Shown: one piece after another, positions 1,799 to 63,000 of the stretch
Position numbering within the stretch: position 1 is the first letter of the stretch
Layout: each line of letters begins with the position of its first letter
Origin: Eubacteriales bacterium
Lineage (GTDB): Bacteria; Bacillota; Clostridia; Christensenellales; Aristaeellaceae
NCBI GenBank assembly: GCA_031548115.1
Contig: JAVBRJ010000004.1
Coordinates: 8,181-72,180, forward strand
DNA length: 64,000 nt
Direction: 5' to 3'
Translations under genes and position numbers: made by a program
The notes under the pieces: model-generated
The model's database searches: none
Seen by the model: only the letters and a program-made list of their open reading frames with translations
Told to the model about the DNA's origin: nothing

Positions 1799-1827
1799 AT
1801 TATAGCACGTGGAGGCAAAGTTTGCAA
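1799..1827 (-). promoter_or_regulatory. Sigma-70 type promoter for the pheST leader
   Basis: On the minus strand: TTGCAA (1822-1827), 17-nt spacer, TGC-TATAAT (-10 at 1799-1804). Confidence 0.6.
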
Positions 1828-1963
1828 GCTGAATGCACTTTTTTAAGCGTGCTTTTTGTCAGGCTTATTTTCTTCTTGCCATTTTTTCTTTTCCTTTGTT
1901 ATTATAGTTTCATATTACATCCCCTTTTTATACTGCACTTATCGACTACTTAGGAGGAACAGC

Positions 1964-3571
1964 ATGGCGATCTATCTCAAAAACGGCACCCTCTACGACG
2001 GCCTGGGAAATCCCCCCGTTACTGGTGGCCTGCTCATCGAAGGCGACCGCATCACGGCCCTCACCGATCCCCTGGCAGATGCTCCGAATACCCCGCCCTG
2101 TGGCTCGGACGTGACCACCATCGACTGCACCGGCAAGTGGGTCATGCCTGGCTTTATTGATGCACACTCTCACAACGATTTCTTTGCCCTTCGCCAGGAC
2201 AGCGAAAAATTCTTTAAGCCCTTTGTCCAGCAGGGCATCACTTCCTTTGTGGTGGGCAACTGTGGCTTCTCCGCCAGCGGCTTTGATCCGGCCTCCCCGT
2301 ATGCTCAGCAGATCGGCGGCGGCCTGTTCGCCCTGGATGAAGAAAGCCTGGCCCTGGGGGCCTACCCTGCCTGGACCAAAGCGGCCAACGCCTGCGCCTC
2401 GGCCAATCTGGCCCCGCTCGCAGGCCACGGCACCGCCCGCATCGGTGCAAACGGCAAGGGCAGCCAGCCCTTGACCCCGGAGCGCAGGCAGGAAATGCTG
2501 GCCCAGCTGGATATCGCCCTTCAAAACGGTGCGCCCGGCTGCTCCCTGGGCCTTATGTACGAGCCGGGCATCTTTGCCCCTCAGGAGGAGCTGCTGGAGG
2601 TGGCCCGGTTGGTCAAAAAACACGACCGCATCCTCACCGTACACCCCAAGGCGGAAAGCACCGTCTCCCTCTCCTATCCCCTTTTGGGCAAGAGCCACCT
2701 GCTCCGCGCCCTGGAGGAGCTGGCGGATATCGTGCGCCAGACGGGGGTGCGCCTCCAGTACAGCCACCTGATCTTTGTTGGCCGCCGGACCTGGAGGGAC
2801 GAGGACAAGGCCTTGGCTATTTTCAAACAGCTTAAGGACGAGGGCTTCGATGTCCAGTTTGACATGTACCCCTTAAACTACGGGGCCTCTGTCATTACCG
2901 TGGTGATGCCGGAATGGTTCATGAAGCTGCCTGCCGAAAAGCGCCTGTCGAAATGGACCCGCCTTAAGCTGCGGGTGATGATCCAGGTGACCACCGCGCT
3001 GCTGGGCTTTGGCTTCCCGGATATCACCATCGCCTACGCCGGGGATGAACACCCGGACTGGATCGGTAAGACCATCCCGGAGCTGGCGGATATGTGGGGC
3101 TGCTCTCATTTCAACGCCTACCTTCGCACCTGTGAGGAAAGCGGCTTCCAGGCGGCGGTGCTCCAAAGCGGCTACCAGAACCAGGGGCTCATGCGCCGTC
3201 TCATGCGCCATCCTCTGTCCCTGTATATGACCGATGCCTGGGTGACGGAAAAGGGCAAGCAAAACGGTGGCATTTACGGGGCCTTCCCCATGTTCCTGGA
3301 GGAGGCCCGCGCCATAGGCGTGCCTATAGAGGCAGCCGTTGCCAAAATGACCGGCCTTACCGCCAAGCGCTTCCAGCTTAAGGACCGGGGCTTGCTGCGG
3401 CCCGGAGCCTTTGCGGATGTGACTGTGGTAGACCCCGCCGCCCTCAAGAGCCGCATCGACGAGGAGCTTCCGCCCCTGGGCATTGAGCAGGTGCTCATGA
3501 ACGGCCAGTTTGTCCTTAGGGATGGGGCCTTTGTTGGCGGGGTCAAGGCGGGGCAGGTCTTGACGGTGTGA
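1964..3571 (+). CDS. N-acyl-D-amino-acid deacylase (D-aminoacylase) family amidohydrolase
   Basis: The start is taken at ATG 1964 behind TAGGAGG; the longer ORF-track start at 1856 has no RBS. Family features include the GFIDAHSHND metal motif, an N-terminal composite beta-barrel pattern (LKNGTLYDG...IEGDRI) and the C-terminal RGLLRPGAFADVTVVDP. Confidence 0.85.
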   Translation: MAIYLKNGTLYDGLGNPPVTGGLLIEGDRITALTDPLADAPNTPPCGSDVTTIDCTGKWVMPGFIDAHSHNDFFALRQDSEKFFKPFVQQGITSFVVGNCGFSASGFDPASPYAQQIGGGLFALDEESLALGAYPAWTKAANACASANLAPLAGHGTARIGANGKGSQPLTPERRQEMLAQLDIALQNGAPGCSLGLMYEPGIFAPQEELLEVARLVKKHDRILTVHPKAESTVSLSYPLLGKSHLLRALEELADIVRQTGVRLQYSHLIFVGRRTWRDEDKALAIFKQLKDEGFDVQFDMYPLNYGASVITVVMPEWFMKLPAEKRLSKWTRLKLRVMIQVTTALLGFGFPDITIAYAGDEHPDWIGKTIPELADMWGCSHFNAYLRTCEESGFQAAVLQSGYQNQGLMRRLMRHPLSLYMTDAWVTEKGKQNGGIYGAFPMFLEEARAIGVPIEAAVAKMTGLTAKRFQLKDRGLLRPGAFADVTVVDPAALKSRIDEELPPLGIEQVLMNGQFVLRDGAFVGGVKAGQVLTV

Positions 3572-50138: not shown

Positions 50139-50930
50139 TTGACCATTATCGACACTCACGCCCATATTTATCCTGACGCCATCGCCCAAAAGGCGGCTGC
50201 GTCCATCGGCGAATTCTATGATATCCCCATGTGCAAGGATGGCACTTTGGGCACCCTTTTGTCCCTTGGGGATGAGGCGGGCATCTCCCGTTTTCTGGTG
50301 CACAGCGTAGCCGTCACCTGGGAGCGGGTGCACAGCATCAATGATTATTTGATGCGCACCGTTTCGGAGCATCCCGACCGGCTGATCGGCTTTGGCACCA
50401 TGCACCCGGACCATCCCCAGGCCCGGGCGGAGCTGGAGCGCATCAAGGCCGGAGGCCTTAAGGGCGTGAAGCTGCACCCCGATTTTCAATATTTTGACCT
50501 GGACGATCCCAAAGCCATTGCCCTGTTTGAGGAAATGGCGGACCTGTCCCTGCCGCTGCTCACCCATATGGGCGACAAGCGCTATACCTACAGCCAGCCT
50601 GCCCGTCTGGAAAGGGCCCTTAAGGCCGTGCCCGATCTCCGGGTCATTGGCGCGCATTTGGGGGGCTGGTCCGTATGGGACGAGGCCTGGAAGACCCTGG
50701 CCGGGCATCCCAATGTGTGGGTGGACTGCTCCTCCAGCCTGTACGCCCTGGGGCCGGAAAAGGCGGCGGAGATCATCCGCCGCTATGGCACGGACCGGGT
50801 GTTCTTTGGCGCAGATTATCCCATGTGGAACCCCGTGGAGGAGGTGCAGCGGCTCTTGGCGCTGCCCTTGACCCCCGATGAGCAGGAGGATATCTTTCAC
50901 CGAAACTTCGAAGCCTTTATGCCTCTTTAA
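50139..50930 (+). CDS. Amidohydrolase family protein (Amidohydro_2 / TIM-barrel metal hydrolase)
   Basis: TTG start lies 8 nt after AAAGGAG. IIDTHAHIYP, GVKLHPDFQ, LLTHMG, IGAHLGG and FGADYPMW are present. Confidence 0.85.
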   Translation: MTIIDTHAHIYPDAIAQKAAASIGEFYDIPMCKDGTLGTLLSLGDEAGISRFLVHSVAVTWERVHSINDYLMRTVSEHPDRLIGFGTMHPDHPQARAELERIKAGGLKGVKLHPDFQYFDLDDPKAIALFEEMADLSLPLLTHMGDKRYTYSQPARLERALKAVPDLRVIGAHLGGWSVWDEAWKTLAGHPNVWVDCSSSLYALGPEKAAEIIRRYGTDRVFFGADYPMWNPVEEVQRLLALPLTPDEQEDIFHRNFEAFMPL

Positions 50931-52065
50931 CGGCGTCCTCGTCCTTGGGCGCATCCTTCGGCGCATCCTTCCGCCCCAAGGAGAAGGGCAGCAGCCAGCG
51001 GACGGCCTCCGTCCCCGCGCTAAAGAGCATCCCCAGCATTTTGCGAACATCGTGCCGGGCCTCCGGGTCCAGCTCCCGAAGCGCCTCCAGCATCCTGCGG
51101 GCGCTTTCGTGCCATTCGTGCACCAAGCCGTTGACGGTCTCTGCCTGGGAGGCGGCCACCACCTGGTACAGCGTGTCCACCAGCATCCTACGGGAGTCCA
51201 TGTCCATTTCCTTAAGCCAGGTATGGATAGCCTCATCCGTCAGCCTGCCGGTGAAATTCAGGTTCTCCAGGGCTATGAACGCTCCGTCCTTCACCTGCCA
51301 GGTCATGGCGTCATGCTGCAATATCCCCAGGCTCTTGCCATAGACCACAGTATAGACCGGGTGATAGTGCAGCAGCATGCCCACCACGCTGCTTTGTGGG
51401 ATATAGCTCTGTATCCGCTCCCGGACCAGCTCGTAGCCGATGCTGGCCAGGGTGTCCTCGTCCATGCCCGGGCCATCGAAGCTATATATCCGCTGGACCC
51501 TATCCCGCGTGTCCCCGTCGGCATTGGCTCCGGCGTATACGGCCAGGTTGCCGCCCTTGCTGTGCCCAGCTAGGAGCAGTGCGTGGCCGTTTTGGGCGGC
51601 GACCCGCTGGAGGTACTCCACCGCCTCCTGCTGAGAGGGCACCACCATAAAGGACATGTTCAGGTCCTCTTTCCAGCCCGCCAGGGTCAGATCCGTCCCC
51701 CGGTAGGCGATAGCCATCTGCCCCATAGGCATATCAAAGGCGCACACGGCAAACTGCATCTCCCGCTGTACGTCGATCGTATTAACATAATCATGGATCT
51801 CCCAGCGCTCATACCTGGGCTGGGTGGCGCACAGCTCGGTGAGGGCATAGCGCTTACGCTGGAAGGGGTCGGTAAAGCTGTCCGGGTAAGCGCCACTTAA
51901 AAATATCCACAGCTCCTGAATGGTGGCCCTTTCCCCGTGGTCCAGAAAGCCCTCCATGGGCATATATACGATCTGGGTCAATACCAGGGCATCCAGCTCG
52001 TCAAAGGGGCGCTCCTCCAGGGTCTTATGTCCTATGGCGACTACGTGATCCTCAATATTCGGCAT
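50917..52065 (-). CDS. DUF2974 (Mbeg1-like) alpha/beta-hydrolase family protein
   Basis: Start ATG 52065 lies behind AGGGGGA. IAYRGTDLTLAGWKEDL and the nucleophile elbow LAGHSKGGNLA are present. The 3' end overlaps the convergent amidohydrolase gene by 14 nt. Confidence 0.85.
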   Translation of the reverse strand: MPNIEDHVVAIGHKTLEERPFDELDALVLTQIVYMPMEGFLDHGERATIQELWIFLSGAYPDSFTDPFQRKRYALTELCATQPRYERWEIHDYVNTIDVQREMQFAVCAFDMPMGQMAIAYRGTDLTLAGWKEDLNMSFMVVPSQQEAVEYLQRVAAQNGHALLLAGHSKGGNLAVYAGANADGDTRDRVQRIYSFDGPGMDEDTLASIGYELVRERIQSYIPQSSVVGMLLHYHPVYTVVYGKSLGILQHDAMTWQVKDGAFIALENLNFTGRLTDEAIHTWLKEMDMDSRRMLVDTLYQVVAASQAETVNGLVHEWHESARRMLEALRELDPEARHDVRKMLGMLFSAGTEAVRWLLPFSLGRKDAPKDAPKDEDAVKEA

Positions 52066-52166
52066 TTGTATTTCCCCCTTTATACTTCCAGTATAACGGA
52101 TTGCATCCCGCCTGGCAATGGTGTATACTACTGTTAAGTCTTTCACACTGAAAGGAGACCTCTTGT

Positions 52167-52956: not shown

Positions 52957-54420
52957 TTATTCGGCCTCCAGCATTCCCAGCATGATCTCCCGCAGCTTCT
53001 CTGGGTCGGCCTTGCCCTTGGTGGCGGCCATGGCCTTGCCCATCAGCGCCTTTTCCACGCTCGTTTTGCCCCCCCGGTAGCTTGCTGCCATGTCCGGGTT
53101 CTCCGCGATCACCTGGGCCGCCGCCGCCCTCAGCGGGCCCGCATCCGTCATAGAGAACAGATCGTGCTCCGTAGCATAGGCCTCCGGGTCCTGATCGGCT
53201 TCAAACAGCGCCGCCAATATCTTCTTCCCGGTGGAGCTGTTCACCTGGGCCTGGGCCATCATGTCCGATAGCTTGGCCAGGTTTTCCGGCGCAATGGGCA
53301 GAGAATCCGCATCCCGCTCCCCGGTGTGCTCGGTATCCCGCAGGGTCAGCTGGGCAAAGACCTCTCCTAGTATCAGGTTTGCAGCGGCCACGGGGCTTTG
53401 GGCCGCCTGGGCTGCCTTTTCAAAATACTCCGCCAGCCACCTTTCGGCGGTCAGCTGCTCCGCCGCGTAGGCGGTGAGCCCGTAGTTCTCCATGTACTGG
53501 GCGCAGCGGGCATCTGGCAGGGTGGGGATGCGGCCCCGTATCTCCGCCAGCTCCTCCGGGGAAAGGTACACCTCCGGCAGGTCCGGCTCCGGAAAATAGC
53601 GATAGTCCGCGCTGTTTTCCTTCCGGCGCATAGAGATGGTCTTGCCGCTCTTCTGGTCGTAGCGGCGGGTCTCCTGCACGATGGTCTCCCCCGCGTCCAG
53701 CAGTGCCGCCTGCCGCTGGTACTCGGCGGCGATGGCCTTTTCTACGCTCTGGAAGGAGTTGAGGTTCTTCATTTCCGTGCGGATGCCAAAGGGCTCCCCG
53801 GGCTTTCTTAGGCTCAGGTTCACATCGCAGCGCAGGCTGCCCTCGTTCATCTTGCAATCGCTGACCCCGGTATAGGTAAGGATAGCCCGAAGCTTTCGCA
53901 GGTAGGCCACGGCCTCCTCGGCGCTGCGGATGTCCGGCTCCGACACGATCTCGATCAGTGGCACGCCGCAGCGGTTCATGTCCAAAAGGGTGCCGTTCAC
54001 GCTGTCGTGAAGCAGCTTGCCTGCGTCCTCCTCGATATGGATGCGGGTGATGCCCACCTTCTTCTCTCCCTGGCTGGTGTGGATGATCAGGTGACCGTTT
54101 TCGCAGATGGGCCGGTAAAACTGGCTGATCTGATACGCCTTGGGCAGGTCGGGGTAAAAATAATTTTTCCGGTCAAAGCGGCTTCGGTGGTGCACATGCG
54201 CATCCAGCGCCATTCCTGCCATGGCCGCCAGCCACAGGGCCTTACGGTTGAACACCGGCAGGGCCCCCGGCAGGCCCATGCACACCGGGCATACATGGGC
54301 GTTGGGCTCGGCCCCAAAGGCGTTCCTGCAGCTGCAAAAGACCTTACTTTCCGTGCGCAGCTCCACGTGGGTCTCCAGGCCGATGACCATTTCATAGGCG
54401 TGCTTTGATATCGTGGTCAT
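52957..54420 (-). CDS. gatB: Asp-tRNA(Asn)/Glu-tRNA(Gln) amidotransferase subunit B
   Basis: YEMVIGLETHVELRTESKVFCSC... 487 aa. The ATG overlaps the gatA stop (ATGA). Confidence 0.97.
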   Translation of the reverse strand: MTTISKHAYEMVIGLETHVELRTESKVFCSCRNAFGAEPNAHVCPVCMGLPGALPVFNRKALWLAAMAGMALDAHVHHRSRFDRKNYFYPDLPKAYQISQFYRPICENGHLIIHTSQGEKKVGITRIHIEEDAGKLLHDSVNGTLLDMNRCGVPLIEIVSEPDIRSAEEAVAYLRKLRAILTYTGVSDCKMNEGSLRCDVNLSLRKPGEPFGIRTEMKNLNSFQSVEKAIAAEYQRQAALLDAGETIVQETRRYDQKSGKTISMRRKENSADYRYFPEPDLPEVYLSPEELAEIRGRIPTLPDARCAQYMENYGLTAYAAEQLTAERWLAEYFEKAAQAAQSPVAAANLILGEVFAQLTLRDTEHTGERDADSLPIAPENLAKLSDMMAQAQVNSSTGKKILAALFEADQDPEAYATEHDLFSMTDAGPLRAAAAQVIAENPDMAASYRGGKTSVEKALMGKAMAATKGKADPEKLREIMLGMLEAE

Positions 54421-56024
54421 TTCCCGTTCCCTCCCTTCACCGCGTCATAGGGGCGCAGACCCTTGTTTACTTCATATCGGCTTTCATAGGCCGCCCCGAT
54501 GCTCAACAGATGCGCTAGGCTATCTCGCGCCCCCATCAGACTCAGGCCGATGGGCAGGCCCGTTTCCGTCAGCCCACAGGGCAACGACAGGGCAGGTAGC
54601 CCCGTGATATTGGCGGGGACGGTGTAGATATCCCCCATGTACATAGCCATGGGGTCGCTTTTTTAGCCCAGCGTGTAGGCGGCGGTGGGGGTCACCGGGG
54701 TCAGCAGGCCGTCGCAGTCCGCAAGGGCCTGATTCACCTCGTCCCTAAGGATCTCCCGGACCTCCTGGGCCTTTAAATAATACTGGTCCTGATAGCCGCT
54801 GGACAGGGCGAAGGTGCCCAGCAAAATGCGGCGCTTCACCTCCAGGCCAAAGCCCTCCTGACGGCTCTTGCGATATAGCTCGTCCAGGTCCCCATACTCC
54901 GCCCTGCGGTAGCCGTAGCGCACGCCATCGAACCGGGCCAGGTTGCTGGAGGCCTCCGCGCTGGAGATCACGTAATAGGCAGGCAGGGCCGCAGACAGCG
55001 AGGGAATGGATACCTCCTTCACCTCCGCCCCCATGGCCCGGAAGCTATCCGCCGCTTTAAGCAGCGCGTCCCTCACTTCGCAGTCCAAGCCCTCCCCAAA
55101 GCACTCCTTGGGGAGGCCTAAGCGCAGACCTTTCAGGGGCAGGTCCTGGGGACAGGGCGGGGCATCCGCCTCCATCGCTCCGAAGGCCCCGGCCAGGCTC
55201 CCATCGCTGGTGGCATCGTGCTCATCCTCTCCGGCGATAATATCCAGCACCAGGGCGGCATCCTGCACGGTCTTGGCGATAGGCCCGATCTGGTCCAGGG
55301 AGCTGGCAAAGGCGATGAGCCCATATCGGCTGACAGTGCCATAGGCGGGCTTCACCCCCGCCACCCCGCAAAAGGCCGCAGGCTGGCGGATACTGCCGCC
55401 GGTGTCGCTGCCTAGGGCCACGGGGGCCATCCCTGCCGCCACCGCCGCCGCGCTGCCCCCGGAGGAGCCGCCTGGCACGCAGCTAAGGTCCCAGGGGTTC
55501 TTGGTCTTTCCAAAATAGCTGGTCTCGGTGCTGCCGCCCATGGCGAACTCATCCATGTTCACTCGGCCCAAAATGGGCATCCCTGCGGCCTTAAGCTTTG
55601 TGATCACCGTCGCGTCATAGGGGGACACAAAGTCCTCCAGCATTCGGCTAGCACAGGCGCTCGTATGGCCCTTGATGACGATATTGTCCTTGATGGCGAT
55701 GGGAATGCCGTCCAGACGGCTCAGTGGCTTGCCTGCTGCCCGGCGGGCATCCGAGGCCGCCGCTTCCTTCAGGGCCTCCTCCTCAAACACCTCCAAAAAG
55801 GCGTTAATATTTTTATTCTGCAAGGCAATGCTTTCCAGGTAGGCCTTTACGATGTTAACAGAGGTGGTCTCGCCCCTGTCCAGCAGCCTGCACAGCGCCT
55901 CCACCGTCCGCCCGCACAGGGCCGGTATGGCTTCCCCCGCTTTTGGCGTTGCGTTGGCTGCTTCCGTTGCGTTGGCTGCTTTCGTTGCGTTGGCTGCCTC
56001 CGTTGCGTTCATTGTTTTCGTCAT
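54417..56024 (-). pseudogene. gatA: Amidotransferase subunit A with one in-frame TAA (54663-54665)
   Basis: The two ORF-track pieces (54663-56228 and 54417-54650) are in the same frame. The sequence reads ...[41 protein letters not shown]. Amidase signature GGSSGGSAAAVAAG is present. Start ATG 56024 lies behind AAGGAGGGG. Confidence 0.85.
55948..56009 (-). repeat. 18-bp tandem repeat x3.4 inside the 5' end of gatA
   Basis: The plus-strand units are GTTGCGTTGGCTGCTTCC, GTTGCGTTGGCTGCTTTC and GTTGCGTTGGCTGCCTCC, followed by a partial GTTGCGTT. They encode NATEAA-NATKAA-NATEAA-NAT. Confidence 0.85.
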
Positions 56025-56037
56025 GCGCGTCCCCTCC

Positions 56038-56322
56038 TTACTCAAAGGTCCTGGGCACGGTGATATACCGCCCGCTGGTAGTCCTGGCGTTCCCAAGCAC
56101 CGCCTGGGTGGATAGCCCTTCCTTCGCCACATCCTCCCGCATGGGGGCGGGCTGAGGCTTAGGCCGGTCCAAAGGCGCTTCCTTCTGGATAGCGCCCAGC
56201 GCGCCGGCAAAATCCACGATGCTGCCAAACTCGGCGGCCATGCGGCCCTCCTCCGCCTGGGACAGCGTCAGCATGGACAGCAGGGCGGCGGTCTCCACCG
56301 TCTCCTTGGAGCGCTTGCGCAT
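56038..56322 (-). other. gatC: GatC-like segment with its own internal RBS and ATG
   Basis: AAGGAGG lies 5 nt before ATG 56322. The 94-aa product is MRKRSKETVETAALLSMLTLSQAEEGRMAAEFGSIVDFAGALGAIQKEAPLDRPKPQPAPMREDVAKEGLSTQAVLGNARTTSGRYITVPRTFE. Its size and pattern (V..A.L..L.L...E......F..I..F...L, ...REDV..., ...Y..VPR..E) match GatC. Confidence 0.75.
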
Positions 56323-58116
56323 GTGCTCCTCCTTGGCGTCCTGGGCACTGTCCACGCCAAGCCTCAGGGCAGCCAGCTGGGCCGCGTCCACAAAATCCGG
56401 CGCACCGGTCAAAAAGCAGCTGGCATCCCGGACCTTGGGAAAGGCGATGACCTCCCGCAGGGAGCTGGCCCCTCGCAGCAGCATGCAAAGTCGATCCACC
56501 CCAAAGGCAAAGCCCGCATGGGGCGGCGTGCCAAAGCGGAAAGCATCCAGCAGGAAGCCGAAGCGCTCCTGGGCCTCCTCCTTGGAGAAGCCCAGGGCCG
56601 TAAAGACCTGGCTTTGGATGTCCCCCCGGTGGATACGGACGCTGCCGCTGCCCAGCTCCACACCGTTTAGCACCACGTCGTAGGCCTGAGACCGGACCAG
56701 GGGCTTGGTGGCATCATCCAGCATCTTATCCACATCCTCTAAAAAGGGCATGGTGAAGGGGTGGTGCATGGCGGCGTAGCGGCCCTCGTCCTTCTTGTAT
56801 TCAAACATGGGGAAATCCGTCACCAGGGCGAACTGGAAGGCGGTTTTGTCTATCAGGTCCATGATCTCCCCGCATCGGACCCGAAGACCCGATAGCACCC
56901 GGCGGACGGTGTCCAGCTCATCCGCGCAAAACAGCAGGAAGTCCCCGCTCTCCACACCCATTTTTTCTTCCAGGGCACGCAGGCCGTCCTCCGTAAAATA
57001 TTTGGGCAAGATGGAGTTGATCTCCCCGTTTTCCTTATACAGTATCCAGGCCATGCCCTTGGCCCCCAGCTTTAAGGCCAGGTCTGTCAGCTGGTCGATG
57101 GTGGAGCGGGTAAAGACGCTATTTGCGCCCTTGACGTTGATGCACCGCACCACGCCCCCGGCCTTGATGGCCGCGGTAAAGACGGAGAAGTGGGTTCCTC
57201 CGGCGATGTCCGATACATCCACAATGGGCAGCTGGAAGCGCAGGTCCGGCTTGTCGTTGCCGTAGCGGTCCATGGCCTCGTGCCAGGTCAGCCTGAGGAA
57301 AGGCCGCTCCAGCTCCTTCCCCATCACCCGCCGATACAGCCCCGTAAACAGCCCTTGCAGGAAGGCCAGCATATCCTCCTGGTCCACGAAGCTGCGCTCC
57401 ATGTCCACCTGGGTAAACTCCGGCTGGCGGTCTGCCCGCAGGTCCTCGTCCCGGAAGCACCGGGCCACCTGGTAATATTTCTCCACCCCGGATACCATCA
57501 GCAGCTGCTTGTAAATTTGAGGGCTTTGGGGCAGGGCGTAAAAGGTGCCGGGGTGCACCCGGCTGGGCACCAGGTAATCCCGGGCCCCCTCAGGGGTGGA
57601 TTTGCAGAGTATGGGGGTCTCCACCTGCAAAAAGCCGTCGTCATCCAGCATACGCTGGGTCTCCCGGATAAGCATGTGCCTGAACTTTAAGTTTTCGTAC
57701 ATTTGGGGCCTGCGCAGGTCCAGGTAGCGGTATTTCAGCCGCAGCTCATCCCGCACGGGCTCCTCGTCCGTCAGGGAGAAGGGCAGCGTATCCGCAGCGC
57801 TGAGCACCTCCATATGGTGGGCCTCCAGCTCGATCTCTCCCGTGGGCAGCGCCGGATTGTAGGTGCTCTCATCCCGTAGGCGCACCTTTCCCGTAATCCG
57901 CACGCAGCTTTGGTTTTTCAGTTTTTCGGCGGCAGCGAAGCTGTCTCCCGTGGCAATAGCCAGGTCGAACACCGTTTGCAACGTGCCCTCCCGGTCCCGC
58001 ACGTCCACGAAGATGATCCCGCCCATATCCCGTCGGGTCAGTGCCCAGCCGCAGATAGTGGCCTCCTGGCCGATGTGCATCCGGCGTAGCGCGCCGCAAT
58101 CGTGGGACTTAAACAA
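56038..58116 (-). CDS. aspS: Aspartate--tRNA ligase continuous in frame with a GatC-like C-terminal module (692 aa)
   Basis: Start TTG 58116 lies 7 nt after GGAGGG. The AspRS body runs from FKSHDCGALR...GWALTRRDMGGIIFVDVRDREG to ...IAFPKVRDASCFLTGAP. There is no stop before the GatC-like segment. The TAA at 56038-56040 overlaps the gatA RBS. Confidence 0.85.
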   Translation of the reverse strand: MFKSHDCGALRRMHIGQEATICGWALTRRDMGGIIFVDVRDREGTLQTVFDLAIATGDSFAAAEKLKNQSCVRITGKVRLRDESTYNPALPTGEIELEAHHMEVLSAADTLPFSLTDEEPVRDELRLKYRYLDLRRPQMYENLKFRHMLIRETQRMLDDDGFLQVETPILCKSTPEGARDYLVPSRVHPGTFYALPQSPQIYKQLLMVSGVEKYYQVARCFRDEDLRADRQPEFTQVDMERSFVDQEDMLAFLQGLFTGLYRRVMGKELERPFLRLTWHEAMDRYGNDKPDLRFQLPIVDVSDIAGGTHFSVFTAAIKAGGVVRCINVKGANSVFTRSTIDQLTDLALKLGAKGMAWILYKENGEINSILPKYFTEDGLRALEEKMGVESGDFLLFCADELDTVRRVLSGLRVRCGEIMDLIDKTAFQFALVTDFPMFEYKKDEGRYAAMHHPFTMPFLEDVDKMLDDATKPLVRSQAYDVVLNGVELGSGSVRIHRGDIQSQVFTALGFSKEEAQERFGFLLDAFRFGTPPHAGFAFGVDRLCMLLRGASSLREVIAFPKVRDASCFLTGAPDFVDAAQLAALRLGVDSAQDAKEEHMRKRSKETVETAALLSMLTLSQAEEGRMAAEFGSIVDFAGALGAIQKEAPLDRPKPQPAPMREDVAKEGLSTQAVLGNARTTSGRYITVPRTFE

Positions 58117-58144: not shown

Positions 58145-58431
58145 AGGGTCAAAAAAAGCCCTCGCCCCCATGTCGGGGCGAAAGGCTGCTATTACATACC
58201 TTCCGCGGTACCACCCGCGTTGAACGCCAAGGCGTTCCTCTCTTTGACGGAAACAGCGGCGTCCCGCGATTTCCCTACGCTATATCGGGCGCGCCCGTCC
58301 GCGTCTACTAGGCCAAAGCCGTTTGGGCGGATGCTCAGGGCTGTTCTTCCCCCCTGCGAGCCTGCCGCGCTTCCACCGTCCGCAGCTCTCTAAAAAGCTC
58401 CTGCAAAGGCTACTCTTCCCGTCATTGCCTT
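58145..58431 (-). promoter_or_regulatory. T-box riboswitch leader with apparent Asn (AAC) specifier, controlling aspS-gatCAB
   Basis: The T-box sequence CAACGCGGGTGGTACCGCGG is the reverse complement of 58203-58222. The terminator GCCTTTCGCCCC-GACAT-GGGGGCGAGGGC plus T7 lies at 58151-58186. The K-turn element is AATGACGGGAAGAGTAG, and AGAGAG and GGTGGAA distal elements are present. The specifier segment GGGAAGAACAGCCCTGAGCAT aligns with GGGACATTCACTTCTGAGCAT of the pheS leader, placing AAC (58343-58345) opposite TTC. Confidence 0.85.
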
Positions 58432-58437
58432 GGACGT

Positions 58438-58713: not shown

Positions 58714-61700
58714 TTAGAGATTATCCGTGTCGTTGCCTTCCGCGTTTTGGTACCGCTGCGTCCGGCTCACCCGGCGGCCTGTCGTAGGCGAAGCCGCCTC
58801 AGGCGCTGGGCTGTCCCCTGCGATGCCCCCAGCTAAAGGCTGCGCAAAGGGATTGCTGCTGGCCGGAGTGGCAGGGGTCGCGGCAGGGCTAGTGGACGCC
58901 GAAGCGCCGGGAGGCGTGGTGGGGGGCAGCGGCGCGGCGGGCTTCAGCGGGCCCTCGCTGCTTGCGTCCGTTTGGCCCAGGCTGCCCAGGGCCCCCATAA
59001 GGCTGCTGCCCGTTGCCGCAGGCCCGGTAGCCCTGAAGGGGTTAGTTGTGGCCGCAGGCCCGGTAGCCCCAAAGGGGTTGGTTGTGGCCGCAGGCCCGGT
59101 AGCTCCGCTATCTCCAAAGGGGCTGGGGCTACCCGCAGGCCGTGCGTATGGGCTTTGGCTGCCCGCTGCAACGCCGCCCAGGGGAGCGCCGAACACGCCC
59201 GGTGTGGTGCTATTTATGCCATTGCCGGTCCCGGTGCTGCCGAAGGGGTTCGCCTGGCTGCCCGTAGCGCCGGTGGGCCTTTGCTGGGTTCCGCCTACAG
59301 GCGGCGCGGCCACGGCCCGACGGGCGTAGGGGCTTTGCGCGCCTGCCGCGCCGGTGGCCCCGTTGGCAGTGCCGCTGCGCTTGGCGGCGGCGGCCCGGGC
59401 GGCGGCCTTGCGCTTCTTGTTCTGGTTAAGGGCGTAAGCGTACACGCCGCCTGCGCCGCCGATCAGCACGATGCCAGCACCGATCAGGCCCCAGGGGGAC
59501 GAACCGGTCTGGGTCTCCTTGCTCTCGTCATCATAGGTGATGGGGATCATCGTGCCGATGACAAAGGTCGCGGCAGGCTCCGTGGTGCTGGCCGTGCTGG
59601 ACGGGTCAGGGGTGGCGCTGGGGGCGGGAGTGGCATAGGGATCAAATGGTTCGTAGCTGGTGTTGATACCGCTGTTTTGCCACTGGCCCAGGTTCCAGTC
59701 CTCCAGCGAGGAGATCGCGCCTGCGGAGGCGCTGCCGCCGCCAGAGGTGCTGCCACCACCGGAGGTGCTTCCACCAGAGGTGCTACCGCCAGAGGTGCTT
59801 CCACCAGAGGTGCCGGAATTATTGGTCAGGCCTTGCAGATATTCGTTGCTGTTAACGAAGGTGCTCAGCTCTGTCAGGTTCATGTTCTTGAAGAAGTCGC
59901 CGCTGATCCAGCCGATGGTGCCGCCCTGGTTGATGTTGTACCAGACGGTCCCGTTCACTTCCTTTGTGCCGTAGATCAGCGCAAAGGCGTATTGGTTCAG
60001 CTTCTTGATCACACTGCCATTAGGCGTAAGGCGGAAATTGACCACGTTTTTGGTCACATAGCCGTAGCTGGACTTGGCATAGGGATCGTAGGGAGCGGGG
60101 GTATTGGCAGGGGAGGCGGTAGGCTTGGTGAGGGAATCCTCGTAGGCCTTCACTTCCCGGTCGCTCATCTTCCGCAGCTGATCGCCCCGGATATAGCCAT
60201 GCTGGCCGCCGTAGCTGCTGATATGCCAGGTGATGCCGTCCCTGAACAGCTGGCCGCTGACATACACCACCGTGTCGATAGGCAGGCGTGCCAGGATCTC
60301 TGCGTATTGGTCATTCACCCGGCGCAAGGGCGCGTCCCTGACCGTGGTGATGAAATATCCCATCACCTGCTCGGGGTCCGGCTCTACCACGGGTTCGGGC
60401 TCGGGATGGGCCTTCTTATAGGCCTCGATGAGGGCATTGGCCTCTTTATCTGTAATTCTGATGACCTGGCTGTCCAGCACAAAGCCGGGCTGCTGGTTAT
60501 CACCCAGCACTACCTGGGCGCCGCTCCAGAGGTTGCCGCCGTTCTCCACCTGACCGTTGATGAACAGCAGCGTTTTGTCCTCCAGCATGGTCATAATGGT
60601 GCTGTCGTCCAGCTTCACGGCGCTGCGCAGGGCCACCTTTCCCTTGGTGAGGGCATAGCCTCTGTAGATGTCCTTTTCCTTTTCCTGATACATAAAGTTC
60701 AGGTTGGCCAGCTCAGGCTTTTCTAGCTTGCCGTTTTTCACCGTTACATCATAGGATACGGAGCTGCCTGCGGTAAGCTCGTAATTTTCAGGTACATAAG
60801 CCGCATTGGGCGTAATGATATACGTGCCGTCGCCCTTTTTCAGGATCTCCGGGCCGCCGATGGGCTTGCCGGACTTATCCAGATAGTTCACCGTAATGAT
60901 GGCCGTCGGCACTTCCGGCAGGTCGTAGGTGAAGGTCACCTCTTTGGGGGTAGCTACGCCCTGGGTGTCTACCTTTACCTGTACGCTGGCTGGGCTGGTG
61001 AGCTTGTAGTCGGCGATCGCTTCTCCGCCCTCGGGGATAATGTCGTGGGTGCCCGGCTCCAGGTCCCGAGTCTGGGGGCTTATGATGTTAACGCCGTTTG
61101 CTTTATAGTATATCTCTATGGTGGCCTTTTTCACGGTCTCCCTCTCGTAAAGGAAGGTGACCGGGTTTACGCTGGCCTTGCCGTCCTTCACCTCCACCGT
61201 CACAGAGGCAGGGCCGGTCTCCGACAGCACATAGCCCTCCGGGGTGGGATAATCGCTGGCCTTGATCTCATGGGTACCCACGGCAAGCTGTATCGTCACA
61301 TCATCGGCCAGCTTGCCATTGAGGGTATCCTTAAACTCCAGGGTCACAGGGACCATCACGGCTTCCTTCTCATAATAGAAGGTGACCGTATCCGGGGTCG
61401 CCTTGCCGTCGCTACCGATCGTTACCTCTACGGAGGTGGGGCTGTCGGCGGCAAGCTTGTATCCGCTGGAGAGCAGGTCCTGATTGGGCCCTACCTGATA
61501 GGTACCCTCAGTCCTTGTCACCCGCTGGGGATCACCGATGGTTTTTTGGGTGGTCACGTCCACATGGTTGATGGTGAAGCTACCCTCGGCCGCTATCCGC
61601 TGGACCTGGAACACTACCTTGGCAGGGTCGGCCTTGCCGGCTGCGGATATCTTCACCGTGACGGCGCTGTCGTCCAACAGGGTATATCCCGGTACAAGCG

Positions 61701-63000
61701 CGGCATTGGCGTTAATGAGCATTTGCTCCCCTGCGGTGCAGGGCACAGGGCTATCCTCAAATATGGTCTTGCCCGTTCCGGCTTCCACGTATTGCACCGG
61801 CACCATTACCTCTGTGGGCTGCTCAGGCACCGGAGGCTCCTGACCGGCCTCCTCCGCGGCATGGGCATCGCTTTCCGCCTGGCTTAACAACTCCACGAAC
61901 TTCGCCATTACAAAGCATTCGGTGCCGTTGTAGGAGATAGCATACCATTTTTCATTGTTTACGGTCAGTTCGGTCTTGACCCAGCAATACTCGCCCTTTT
62001 TCACCTTGCTGAAAACAGCTTTATTGTCGGTGCTGGGATCGCCCCGGAAATTGACCTCAGTGGTCGTTTTCCCGTACAGGTTAATGGGGGTCTCCTGGGC
62101 CGCCGGGTCGGGGTCGGGATCGGGGTCAGGCTGCGGGTCCGGGTCCGGCTGTGGATCAGGATCGGGCTGCGGGTCCGGCTTCGGGTCGGGATCAGGCTGC
62201 GCTGCAGGCTTTTGGAAATAGAAATTCACCGCCTCAGGGTATGCGAAGCCGTCCTGGTCTACGTCCACTCTGCAGGACGAATCGCCCTGCAGGATATATC
62301 CCTCGGGCACCTTTTTGCTGTTGACTTTGATGATGTTCTCCTGGCCATAATGGCAGGATACCTTATCGGAATAAAAAGTCACGCCGTCGTTGTCGATATA
62401 GCTTACCGGCACGTCAACGGATACCTCTACCGGCTCGGGATCGGGCTGCGGGTCTGGGTCGGGCTGGGGATCGGGATCCGGCTGCGGGTCCGGGTCGGGC
62501 TGCGGGTCCGGGTCGGGCTGCGGGTCCGGATCGGGCTGCGGGTCCGGATCGGGCTGCGGGTCCGGGTCGGGCTGGGGACCAACGCTGGGCTCCGGCATCG
62601 GCTGGCTGGACAAATACAGGTAGTAGCTTTCGCCGGCTACCTCAAGGGGCGCTATGATCGCGCTGGGAACTGTAAAGTCCACAGCGTCGCCCCCCACGAT
62701 CGTTCCATTGTCAGGCATGTATGTATAGCCATTGTTCGAAATAATATCAAGCACAATGGGATAGCTAAACGCCTCCAGAGGCAGCGTCGCCCAGTACACT
62801 ACCTGCTGTTCATTCATTAAGGGCCCTACCGTCAAAGTCCGCTGATCACCCTCAGCCATCTGATAGGTAAGCAGCACAGTGGGTAAGGTGGTCAGATCCG
62901 GCACTGCCAAAGCAGCCAACGGCAACATCACCTGTACTGCCAAAAGCAGCAGGCAGGTCATCCATGCGGCGATCCGACGGCGTAAAATGCGACGTGTCAT
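58714..63000 (-). CDS. Giant type I membrane-anchored surface protein (1428 aa): signal peptide, PDPDPQ linkers, MucBP-like beta repeats, SH3b-like domains, one TM segment and a disordered cytoplasmic tail
   Basis: ATG 63000 lies behind AAGGAGG. The signal peptide is LLLLAVQVMLPLAALA. There are about seven repeats of the pattern V.Y.......I........G......N....VP.GY.L. There are four SH3b-like segments (e.g. VNFRGDPSTDNKAVFSKVKKGEYCWV...WYAISYNGTECFVMAKFV). The TM segment WGLIGAGIVLIGGAGGVYAYAL is followed by NQNKKRKAAARAAAAKR. Confidence 0.85.
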   Translation of the reverse strand: MTRRILRRRIAAWMTCLLLLAVQVMLPLAALAVPDLTTLPTVLLTYQMAEGDQRTLTVGPLMNEQQVVYWATLPLEAFSYPIVLDIISNNGYTYMPDNGTIVGGDAVDFTVPSAIIAPLEVAGESYYLYLSSQPMPEPSVGPQPDPDPQPDPDPQPDPDPQPDPDPQPDPDPQPDPDPQPDPDPQPDPEPVEVSVDVPVSYIDNDGVTFYSDKVSCHYGQENIIKVNSKKVPEGYILQGDSSCRVDVDQDGFAYPEAVNFYFQKPAAQPDPDPKPDPQPDPDPQPDPDPQPDPDPDPDPAAQETPINLYGKTTTEVNFRGDPSTDNKAVFSKVKKGEYCWVKTELTVNNEKWYAISYNGTECFVMAKFVELLSQAESDAHAAEEAGQEPPVPEQPTEVMVPVQYVEAGTGKTIFEDSPVPCTAGEQMLINANAALVPGYTLLDDSAVTVKISAAGKADPAKVVFQVQRIAAEGSFTINHVDVTTQKTIGDPQRVTRTEGTYQVGPNQDLLSSGYKLAADSPTSVEVTIGSDGKATPDTVTFYYEKEAVMVPVTLEFKDTLNGKLADDVTIQLAVGTHEIKASDYPTPEGYVLSETGPASVTVEVKDGKASVNPVTFLYERETVKKATIEIYYKANGVNIISPQTRDLEPGTHDIIPEGGEAIADYKLTSPASVQVKVDTQGVATPKEVTFTYDLPEVPTAIITVNYLDKSGKPIGGPEILKKGDGTYIITPNAAYVPENYELTAGSSVSYDVTVKNGKLEKPELANLNFMYQEKEKDIYRGYALTKGKVALRSAVKLDDSTIMTMLEDKTLLFINGQVENGGNLWSGAQVVLGDNQQPGFVLDSQVIRITDKEANALIEAYKKAHPEPEPVVEPDPEQVMGYFITTVRDAPLRRVNDQYAEILARLPIDTVVYVSGQLFRDGITWHISSYGGQHGYIRGDQLRKMSDREVKAYEDSLTKPTASPANTPAPYDPYAKSSYGYVTKNVVNFRLTPNGSVIKKLNQYAFALIYGTKEVNGTVWYNINQGGTIGWISGDFFKNMNLTELSTFVNSNEYLQGLTNNSGTSGGSTSGGSTSGGSTSGGGSTSGGGSASAGAISSLEDWNLGQWQNSGINTSYEPFDPYATPAPSATPDPSSTASTTEPAATFVIGTMIPITYDDESKETQTGSSPWGLIGAGIVLIGGAGGVYAYALNQNKKRKAAARAAAAKRSGTANGATGAAGAQSPYARRAVAAPPVGGTQQRPTGATGSQANPFGSTGTGNGINSTTPGVFGAPLGGVAAGSQSPYARPAGSPSPFGDSGATGPAATTNPFGATGPAATTNPFRATGPAATGSSLMGALGSLGQTDASSEGPLKPAAPLPPTTPPGASASTSPAATPATPASSNPFAQPLAGGIAGDSPAPEAASPTTGRRVSRTQRYQNAEGNDTDNL
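59015..59105 (-). repeat. 36-bp tandem repeat x2.5 (encodes ATGPAATTNPFG units) in the cytoplasmic tail
   Basis: The plus-strand units are GCCGCAGGCCCGGTAGCCCTGAAGGGGTTAGTTGTG and GCCGCAGGCCCGGTAGCCCCAAAGGGGTTGGTTGTG, followed by a partial copy. Confidence 0.8.
59725..59812 (-). repeat. 15-bp tandem repeats encoding (GGSTS)n
   Basis: The plus strand reads ...CCAGAGGTGCTGCCACCACCGGAGGTGCTTCCACCAGAGGTGCTACCGCCAGAGGTGCTTCCACCAGAGGTGCC. The protein reads GTSGGSTSGGSTSGGSTSGGGSTSGGGS. Confidence 0.8.
62104..62200 (-). repeat. Degenerate 18-bp repeats encoding (PDPDPQ/K)n, array A
   Basis: GGGTCGGGGTCGGGATCGGGGTCAGGCTGCGGGTCCGGGTCCGGCTGTGG... The protein reads PDPDPKPDPQPDPDPQPDPDPQPDPDPDPDP. Confidence 0.8.
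62433..62575 (-). repeat. 18-bp tandem repeats encoding (PDPDPQ)n, array B, about 8 units
   Basis: GGGCTGCGGGTCCGGGTC is reiterated with few substitutions. The protein reads QPDPDPQPDPDPQPDPDPQPDPDPQPDPDPQPDPDPQPDPDPQPDPEP. Confidence 0.85.

Follow-up and report, generated by a model that had tools for sequence, protein, structure and literature searches.

A conserved fusion of aspartyl-tRNA synthetase and GatC in an asparagine T-box operon of Clostridia, a putative covalently tethered transamidosome

We analysed a 64,000-nucleotide stretch of DNA from a Eubacteriales bacterium of the family Aristaeellaceae (GenBank assembly GCA_031548115.1, contig JAVBRJ010000004.1, positions 8,181 to 72,180 of the forward strand; hereafter the window), in which one open reading frame (ORF) joins an aspartyl-tRNA synthetase (AspRS, encoded by aspS) to subunit C of the aspartyl/glutamyl-tRNA amidotransferase (GatC). 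We hold with good confidence that this is a real and evolutionarily conserved AspRS-GatC fusion, located in a T-box-controlled operon, which would form a covalently tethered transamidosome. The system most likely acts as a tethered Asn-transamidosome switched on by uncharged tRNA(Asn). All protein parts of an Asn-transamidosome are encoded in this one operon, two of them in one chain. Coordinates are window positions unless stated otherwise, and all window features described lie on the minus strand.

In both the ORF listing and the sequence, the frame is open without a stop codon from 58152 to 56038. The start of the fusion ORF is likely the TTG at 58116-58114, which is preceded by 7 nt by a Shine-Dalgarno (SD) sequence, GGAGGG (58129-58124; SD duplex dG -10.0), and the frame closes with TAA at 56040-56038, giving 692 codons. 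The gene-caller product, P0001, has the same 692-aa length and the same sequence. Residues 1-598 (56323..58116) make up the AspRS module, with an OB anticodon-binding domain, a class II catalytic core and a GAD insertion, and residues 599-692 (56041..56322) make up the GatC module. The operon runs in the order T-box leader, aspS~gatC, gatA, gatB, so ordered that the fusion is its first gene. The stop codon of the fusion is embedded in the ribosome binding site (RBS) of gatA, TAAGGAGGGG. The gene for the amidase subunit, gatA (54417..56024), begins with the ATG at 56024 and carries an in-frame TAA at 54665-54663, with Pfam Amidase matching the pieces on both sides of it. Its TGA stop codon (54419-54417) overlaps the ATG (54420-54418) of gatB (52957..54420), which encodes the kinase/transamidase subunit and matches Pfam GatB_N (5e-119) and GatB_Yqey (3e-31).

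The synthetase portion contains the Pfam domains tRNA_anti-codon (residues 20-105), tRNA-synt_2 (residues 123-562, E 2.5e-115) and GAD (residues 313-407). It also matches two AspRS equivalog models over their full length, NCBIfam NF001750 with 789.1 bits (cut-off 443) and TIGR00459 with 731 bits (cut-off 373.9), and AlphaFold2 modelled the AspRS body confidently. We assign residues 1-598 as a complete bacterial-type AspRS. For the remaining residues, the Pfam GatC family PF02686 was found at residues 618-687 (34.7-35.9 bits, cut-off 23). When the 94-aa tail was scored alone against TIGR00135 (gatC), it reached 48.0 against a cut-off of 47.1 and covered model positions 2-93 of 93, whereas the same model scored within the whole 692-aa protein gave 42.7, slightly below that cut-off. 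A profile of the family matched four solved GatC chains, among them the Staphylococcus aureus chain 2df4_C (residues 3-94, E 2.4e-20) and 3h0l_C (4.9e-20); the tail also matches 4wj3_C and 3kfu_G. On these matches, residues 599-692 are assigned as a bona fide full-length GatC.

The same family profile follows Escherichia coli AspRS to residue 588 of 590 and then takes up the solved GatC chains from their residues 3-6, and in free-standing 95-aa GatCs of the representative library the match begins at residues 2-4. A native AspRS end is thus joined to a native GatC start through only about 4-8 extra residues, as the loss of an aspS stop codon ahead of a short intergenic spacer would give. An earlier note, made from the sequence of this window, had described AspRS and GatC as one uninterrupted frame made of a complete synthetase and a GatC-like tail, with gatA and gatB following directly through an RBS that overlaps the fusion stop and a gatA stop that overlaps the gatB start. 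All of this was borne out, and the junctions of fused relatives, described below, likewise run through in a single frame without a stop codon.

Conservation of the fusion was assessed in proteins and in loci. The best 120 protein clusters among homologues from NCBI, ENA, JGI and Logan (56-100% identity, 100% coverage) are nearly all 690-699 aa long, and in about two-thirds of them PF02686 is precomputed beside the AspRS domains. At the locus level, species-representative genomes were scanned with the junction profile (alignment A1), which gave 80 loci, and a metagenome scan was added. A single ORF that spans everything between the VIAFPK motif and the GatC end is present in 50 of the 80 species-representative loci, and the metagenome scan contributed 17 further fused loci. 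In total there are 62 distinct fused junctions, with tail identity down to about 30%. The hosts are Eubacteriales, Ca. Limiplasma, Oscillospiraceae, Christensenellales, Tissierellia, Ca. Epulonipiscium and metagenome-assembled genomes (MAGs) of Clostridiaceae, among them many gut and bioreactor Clostridia. The carriers include the isolates Fusibacter sp. 3D3 and Tissierellaceae HCP3S3_D8, as well as a closed 3.46-Mb Ca. Limiplasma chromosome. A search of the protein-representative library with the junction profile, where full-length fusions are hidden inside AspRS clusters formed at 50% identity, bore out the GatC boundary.

In a neighbour-joining tree of the AspRS domain (without bootstrap), a single bipartition places every one of the 46 fused sequences on one side and every one of the 30 unfused ones on the other, a pattern that fits one old fusion event within this sample. 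Gene neighbourhood divides the loci in the same manner. The gatA and gatB genes lie directly downstream of every fused locus where the contig allows, and of no unfused aspS locus. In each fused locus the fused tail is the only GatC-like ORF found in the locus-level scan, and a separate gatC behind unfused aspS, which would represent an intermediate state, did not turn up in the 5 kb downstream (+ strand) of the gene in the roughly 30 unfused loci scanned. A tblastn match in locus L061 to residues 1-130 was considered as a GatC candidate and rejected, as it contains no GatC ORF.

Upstream of the fusion lies a T-box leader (58171..58434), a riboswitch which the earlier note did not mention. It matches RF00230 with 97.1 bits (gathering threshold 93, E 4e-20) over the full model (1-219), and it contains the T-box core, GGGUGGUACCGCG, and at its 3' end a terminator, cgccccgacatgggggcgagggcttttttt, consisting of a hairpin and a U-run. 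Based on the Rfam alignment columns, the specifier is AAC (Asn; 58343..58345) in the context GAA-G-AAC-A, with a purine after the codon. In each of the nine relatives aligned with cmscan these columns also contain AAC, and in an unrelated control T-box on locus L011 they contain UUC, which validates the column assignment. In a pattern scan, 47 of 57 fused loci had the T-box core upstream, as opposed to none of 46 unfused loci, and at least 43 of the 47 carry the AAC specifier. T-box leaders allow readthrough when the cognate tRNA is uncharged, so with an AAC specifier the operon should be read through on uncharged tRNA(Asn). By its leader, then, the operon is predicted to respond to whether tRNA(Asn) is charged. 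The Asn-specific T-box is the strongest functional clue; it ties the module to asparagine supply and not to general Asp-tRNA synthesis.

Two further observations concern these leaders. Within the specifier context GAAGAACA (58341-58350), a GAA codon (Glu) overlaps the AAC codon (Asn) by one base. Loci L032 and L036 have A in place of the G that precedes AAC; conservation of the overlap thus does not extend through the relatives, and a two-codon reading is no feature of the family. In addition, the control T-box of L011, an Oscillospiraceae MAG, is a second T-box with a UUC (Phe) specifier (L011 positions 1813-2046, minus strand); it is oriented divergently and lies some 1 kb upstream of the Asn-specific leader of the fused operon.

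We infer that the AspRS module is non-discriminating, i.e. that it aspartylates tRNA(Asn) as well, from its context of an Asn-specific T-box and obligatory gatA and gatB neighbours. Its top PDB match is 4wj3_M, the Asp/Asn ligase of Pseudomonas aeruginosa (8e-171), and the discriminating-type E. coli enzyme, 1eqr, matches at 1e-167. At the position that we take to correspond to His31 of P. aeruginosa AspRS, the window enzyme has Met, which is presumably uninformative as to whether it discriminates. In the mechanism that we propose, the aspS stop codon and the short spacer before gatC would have been turned into coding sequence, the non-discriminating AspRS module would make Asp-tRNA(Asn), and the attached GatC would recruit and wrap GatA-GatB as free GatC does. 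AspRS is a dimer, and the expected particle would therefore be (AspRS-GatC)2(GatA)2(GatB)2, with two amidotransferases per synthetase dimer. The fusion would make the association of synthetase and amidotransferase permanent and tRNA-independent and would fix its stoichiometry, while in this genome only, the SD and ATG at the old GatC start may add some free GatC. A more specific proposal is that, clade-wide, the GatCAB of the operon assembles only on the AspRS C-terminus, as a permanent, tRNA-independent Asn-transamidosome of 2:2:2 composition, and that in the lineage of the window the internal SD-ATG sets the ratio of tethered to free GatC. We offer this version tentatively and would rate its chances a little short of even. 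If true, the operon would encode a dedicated Asn-tRNA(Asn)/asparagine-making machine.

Several observations weigh against the tethered transamidosome. In the PDB ranking, the non-discriminating 4wj3_M leads the discriminating enzyme of E. coli by only a small margin. The fusion complex, the binding of GatAB and the fit of the linker to 4WJ3 are predictions. The GatC module of the window subclade is divergent and has lost the DT.GV.PT.H stretch (alignment A1), and a precomputed Pfam GatC match is not listed for many members of the Limiplasma group. Finally, the TAA within gatA, if real, would make the amidotransferase defective in this genome. The alternative explanations that draw on these and other observations are taken up below.

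The junction itself reads GAC GCC AAG GAG GAG CAC ATG CGC, in which AAGGAGG (56334-56328; duplex dG -11.2) resembles an SD sequence and is separated by a 5-nt spacer, AGCAC, from an in-frame ATG (56322-56320). This codon, Met599, is aligned with Met1 of free-standing GatC and is a possible lineage-specific internal start. The SD is comparable in strength to those of gatA (-11.6) and gatB (-12.1), and of the 501 in-frame ATGs that lie inside long ORFs of the window, just 6 (1.2%) are preceded by one as strong (dG <= -11.2). The combination of SD and ATG is beyond what chance would usually give. It would fit an arrangement with two products, in which an internal start at ATG 56322 gives the free GatC that actually serves GatAB, the fused copy being secondary or regulatory. 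Relatives do not share this arrangement, however. In a junction-by-junction scan for SDs and start codons, 28 of the 62 distinct junctions lack any ATG, GTG or TTG across a stretch of 17 codons that surrounds the canonical start. The window stands alone among the 62 in having an ATG with an SD of -11 or stronger, and at just one other junction, with a GTG in locus L053, does any start codon have an SD that reaches -9. The closest relatives, which lack the SD-ATG, read KEEH-RRVQ, KEEH-ERVM or KAEH-ERVM at this point.

The scan rules out an internal gatC RBS and ATG conserved in the family. The statement in the earlier note that both signals are preserved inside the frame holds for this genome, where a strong SD stands before a Met aligned with Met1 of GatC, and fails for the family. 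Its suggestion that free GatC might also be made has to be narrowed in the same way, to at most an extra product of this lineage and not a conserved output of the operon; even in that form we regard it as possible but doubtful. The SD simply spells the Lys-Glu-Glu codons of a charged linker, and the product kept by selection is the full fusion, so that an arrangement in which free GatC does the work of the operon seems to us unlikely. The tethered complex described above remains the preferred reading.

A different concern is raised by gatA. Its codon 454 is the TAA noted above (54665-54663), which splits the gene into a 453-aa and an 81-aa piece and which was not mentioned in the earlier note. 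In 37 of 47 relatives this codon encodes a Glu, within the motif LGEK, and the gatA genes of relatives are intact and encode 499-505 aa. The nonsense codon could thus be real, with the operon decaying here into a recent pseudogene cluster and the fusion lacking a current function in this genome. The TAA is, however, the result of only one substitution, G to T, in an A-rich run (GGCTAAAAAAGC), and no further damage is seen in the operon: aspS~gatC, the remainder of gatA, gatB, every RBS and the T-box are intact, with full-length model matches. A quick scan by eye of the window showed no second disrupted gene; among ORF pairs with an in-frame stop none stood out, in a noisy scan whose candidates were not individually checked. 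The TAA may stem from an error in the consensus, from strain variation or from inactivation in the very recent past. The metagenome scan yielded no contig of the same species against which the junction and the TAA of gatA might be compared, its best match being 54% identical. We consider decay of the whole operon improbable, and a functional fusion, as conserved in the relatives, is the reading we retain.

One may also ask whether the C-terminal 94 residues are still a working GatC, or instead a lineage-specific extension of AspRS that is merely GatC-like and no longer binds GatAB. In the window subclade the tail diverges in its middle third, and Pfam GatC is weak or absent in some relatives. 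AlphaFold2 models the tail as two helices and an extended segment with low confidence (pLDDT 35-68). Such values are expected for a GatC modelled in isolation from GatAB, and they sit beside tail scores above the cut-offs of both PF02686 and TIGR00135 from end to end, a family profile that matches four solved GatC chains, and strict co-occurrence with gatA-gatB in loci that have no separate gatC. We regard the loss of GatC function as very improbable and keep to the assignment of the tail as GatC. In alignment A1, columns ~90-110 (fusion residues ~645-665), the canonical 'DT.GV.PT.H..P..NV' is replaced in the window/Limiplasma subclade by the Pro/Lys/Arg-rich QKEAPLDRPKPQPAPM. This replacement suggests that GatC has been under relaxed or altered constraints after fusion in that subclade.

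A sequencing or assembly artefact, in which a base error has removed a stop between genes that are really separate, might be suspected from the singleton status of the window protein in the protein collection, the lack of a same-species contig and the suspicious TAA in gatA of the same operon, but is effectively refuted because the fusion is conserved across independent assemblies, with the same frame in more than 100 protein clusters from four sources, at divergent junctions, in isolates and on a closed chromosome.

The architecture is not new to databases. The earlier note was aware of no described covalent AspRS-GatC fusion, a claim that does not stand at the database level, where NCBIfam NF009460 (PRK12820) already names a 'bifunctional aspartyl-tRNA synthetase/aspartyl/glutamyl-tRNA amidotransferase subunit C'. 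This model is identical in architecture and aligns residues 7-687 of the window protein to its positions 26-718 of 723, but the score, 602.8 bits, stays below the cut-off of 1379. The scores of nine further Clostridia fusions, 620-672 bits, miss it as well, so NF009460 appears to cover another, narrow lineage. In public records, family members are named only 'aspartate--tRNA ligase'. No paper on a natural AspRS-GatC fusion was found in a full-text literature search, with most subscription papers outside its reach. The architecture is thus already catalogued, and the Clostridia family appears to be a different lineage, uncharacterised as far as an open-access search shows. The fusion arises from a common type of event, between adjacent genes for interacting proteins.

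Non-covalent Asn-transamidosomes are known from Thermus thermophilus (3KFU), P. aeruginosa (4WJ3) and Helicobacter pylori. They have the same components as the operon described here, AspRS on tRNA(Asn) together with GatC, GatA and GatB, but as separate chains; in the window GatC is covalently attached and the association would be tRNA-independent. The H. pylori complex is dynamic, and its bacterial-type non-discriminating AspRS comes together with GatCAB only in the presence of tRNA(Asn) (PMC3367201). The transamidation operon of Clostridium acetobutylicum is, according to secondary sources, controlled by a T-box with overlapping Asn and Glu codons (PMC4052509; PMC4206432). Like the window operon, it has a T-box that senses tRNA(Asn) before genes for tRNA-dependent amidation, and the GAAC of the window specifier, with its overlapping GAA and AAC, is like the two-codon T-box of that species. 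The two sources do not mention an aspS-gatC fusion.

Other fusions of GatC have been obtained in the laboratory. In Mycobacterium smegmatis, a laboratory-selected GatC-GatA fusion, created when the gat operon lost a stop codon, raised mistranslation (PMC7541841). There, as in the window, GatC was fused by stop loss, but at its C-terminus, whereas the fusion described here is at the GatC N-terminus and is ancient and conserved. Chain C of PDB 3AL0, from the crystal of the Thermotoga maritima Gln-transamidosome, is an engineered 'GatC, Linker, Glutamate--tRNA ligase 2', and so provides an artificial precedent for a GatC tethered to a misacylating synthetase, as in the window. It differs in being artificial, in containing GluRS and not AspRS, and in having the opposite order, with GatC N-terminal and the synthetase C-terminal.

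With the family annotated simply as 'aspartate--tRNA ligase', genomes that carry the fusion look as if they lack gatC, and because of this pathway reconstructions for numerous Clostridia of the gut and of bioreactors could score GatC, and with it tRNA-dependent Asn/Gln synthesis, as missing. Transamidosomes are a textbook case of substrate channelling, in which the mischarged tRNA is kept from the ribosome. A conserved covalent version amounts to a natural experiment in which the association has been made permanent, where the known bacterial-type complexes are tRNA-dependent and dynamic. For structural and kinetic studies, the fusion would further offer a convenient target that comes already assembled.

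The remaining observations concern GatA and the surroundings of the operon. The N-terminus of GatA contains an 18-nt tandem repeat (55947-56009; 3.5 copies, 93% matches) that encodes NAT(E/K)AA repeats. Through it this GatA is extended at its N-terminus by about 30 aa that relatives lack; alignments to them begin at residues 28-40 of the window GatA. No tRNA genes were found in the 64-kb window. Directly upstream of the T-box is a 1428-aa ORF (58714-63000) with long (PDPDPQ)n and Gly/Ser/Thr-rich low-complexity tracts. Its predicted signal or transmembrane start, a C-terminal segment resembling a transmembrane helix and a weak SH3_3 match accompany these tracts, and it probably encodes a surface protein. 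Downstream of gatB, a 409-aa protein (50917-52146) has a strong Mbeg1-like (PF11187) match and appears unconnected to the operon.

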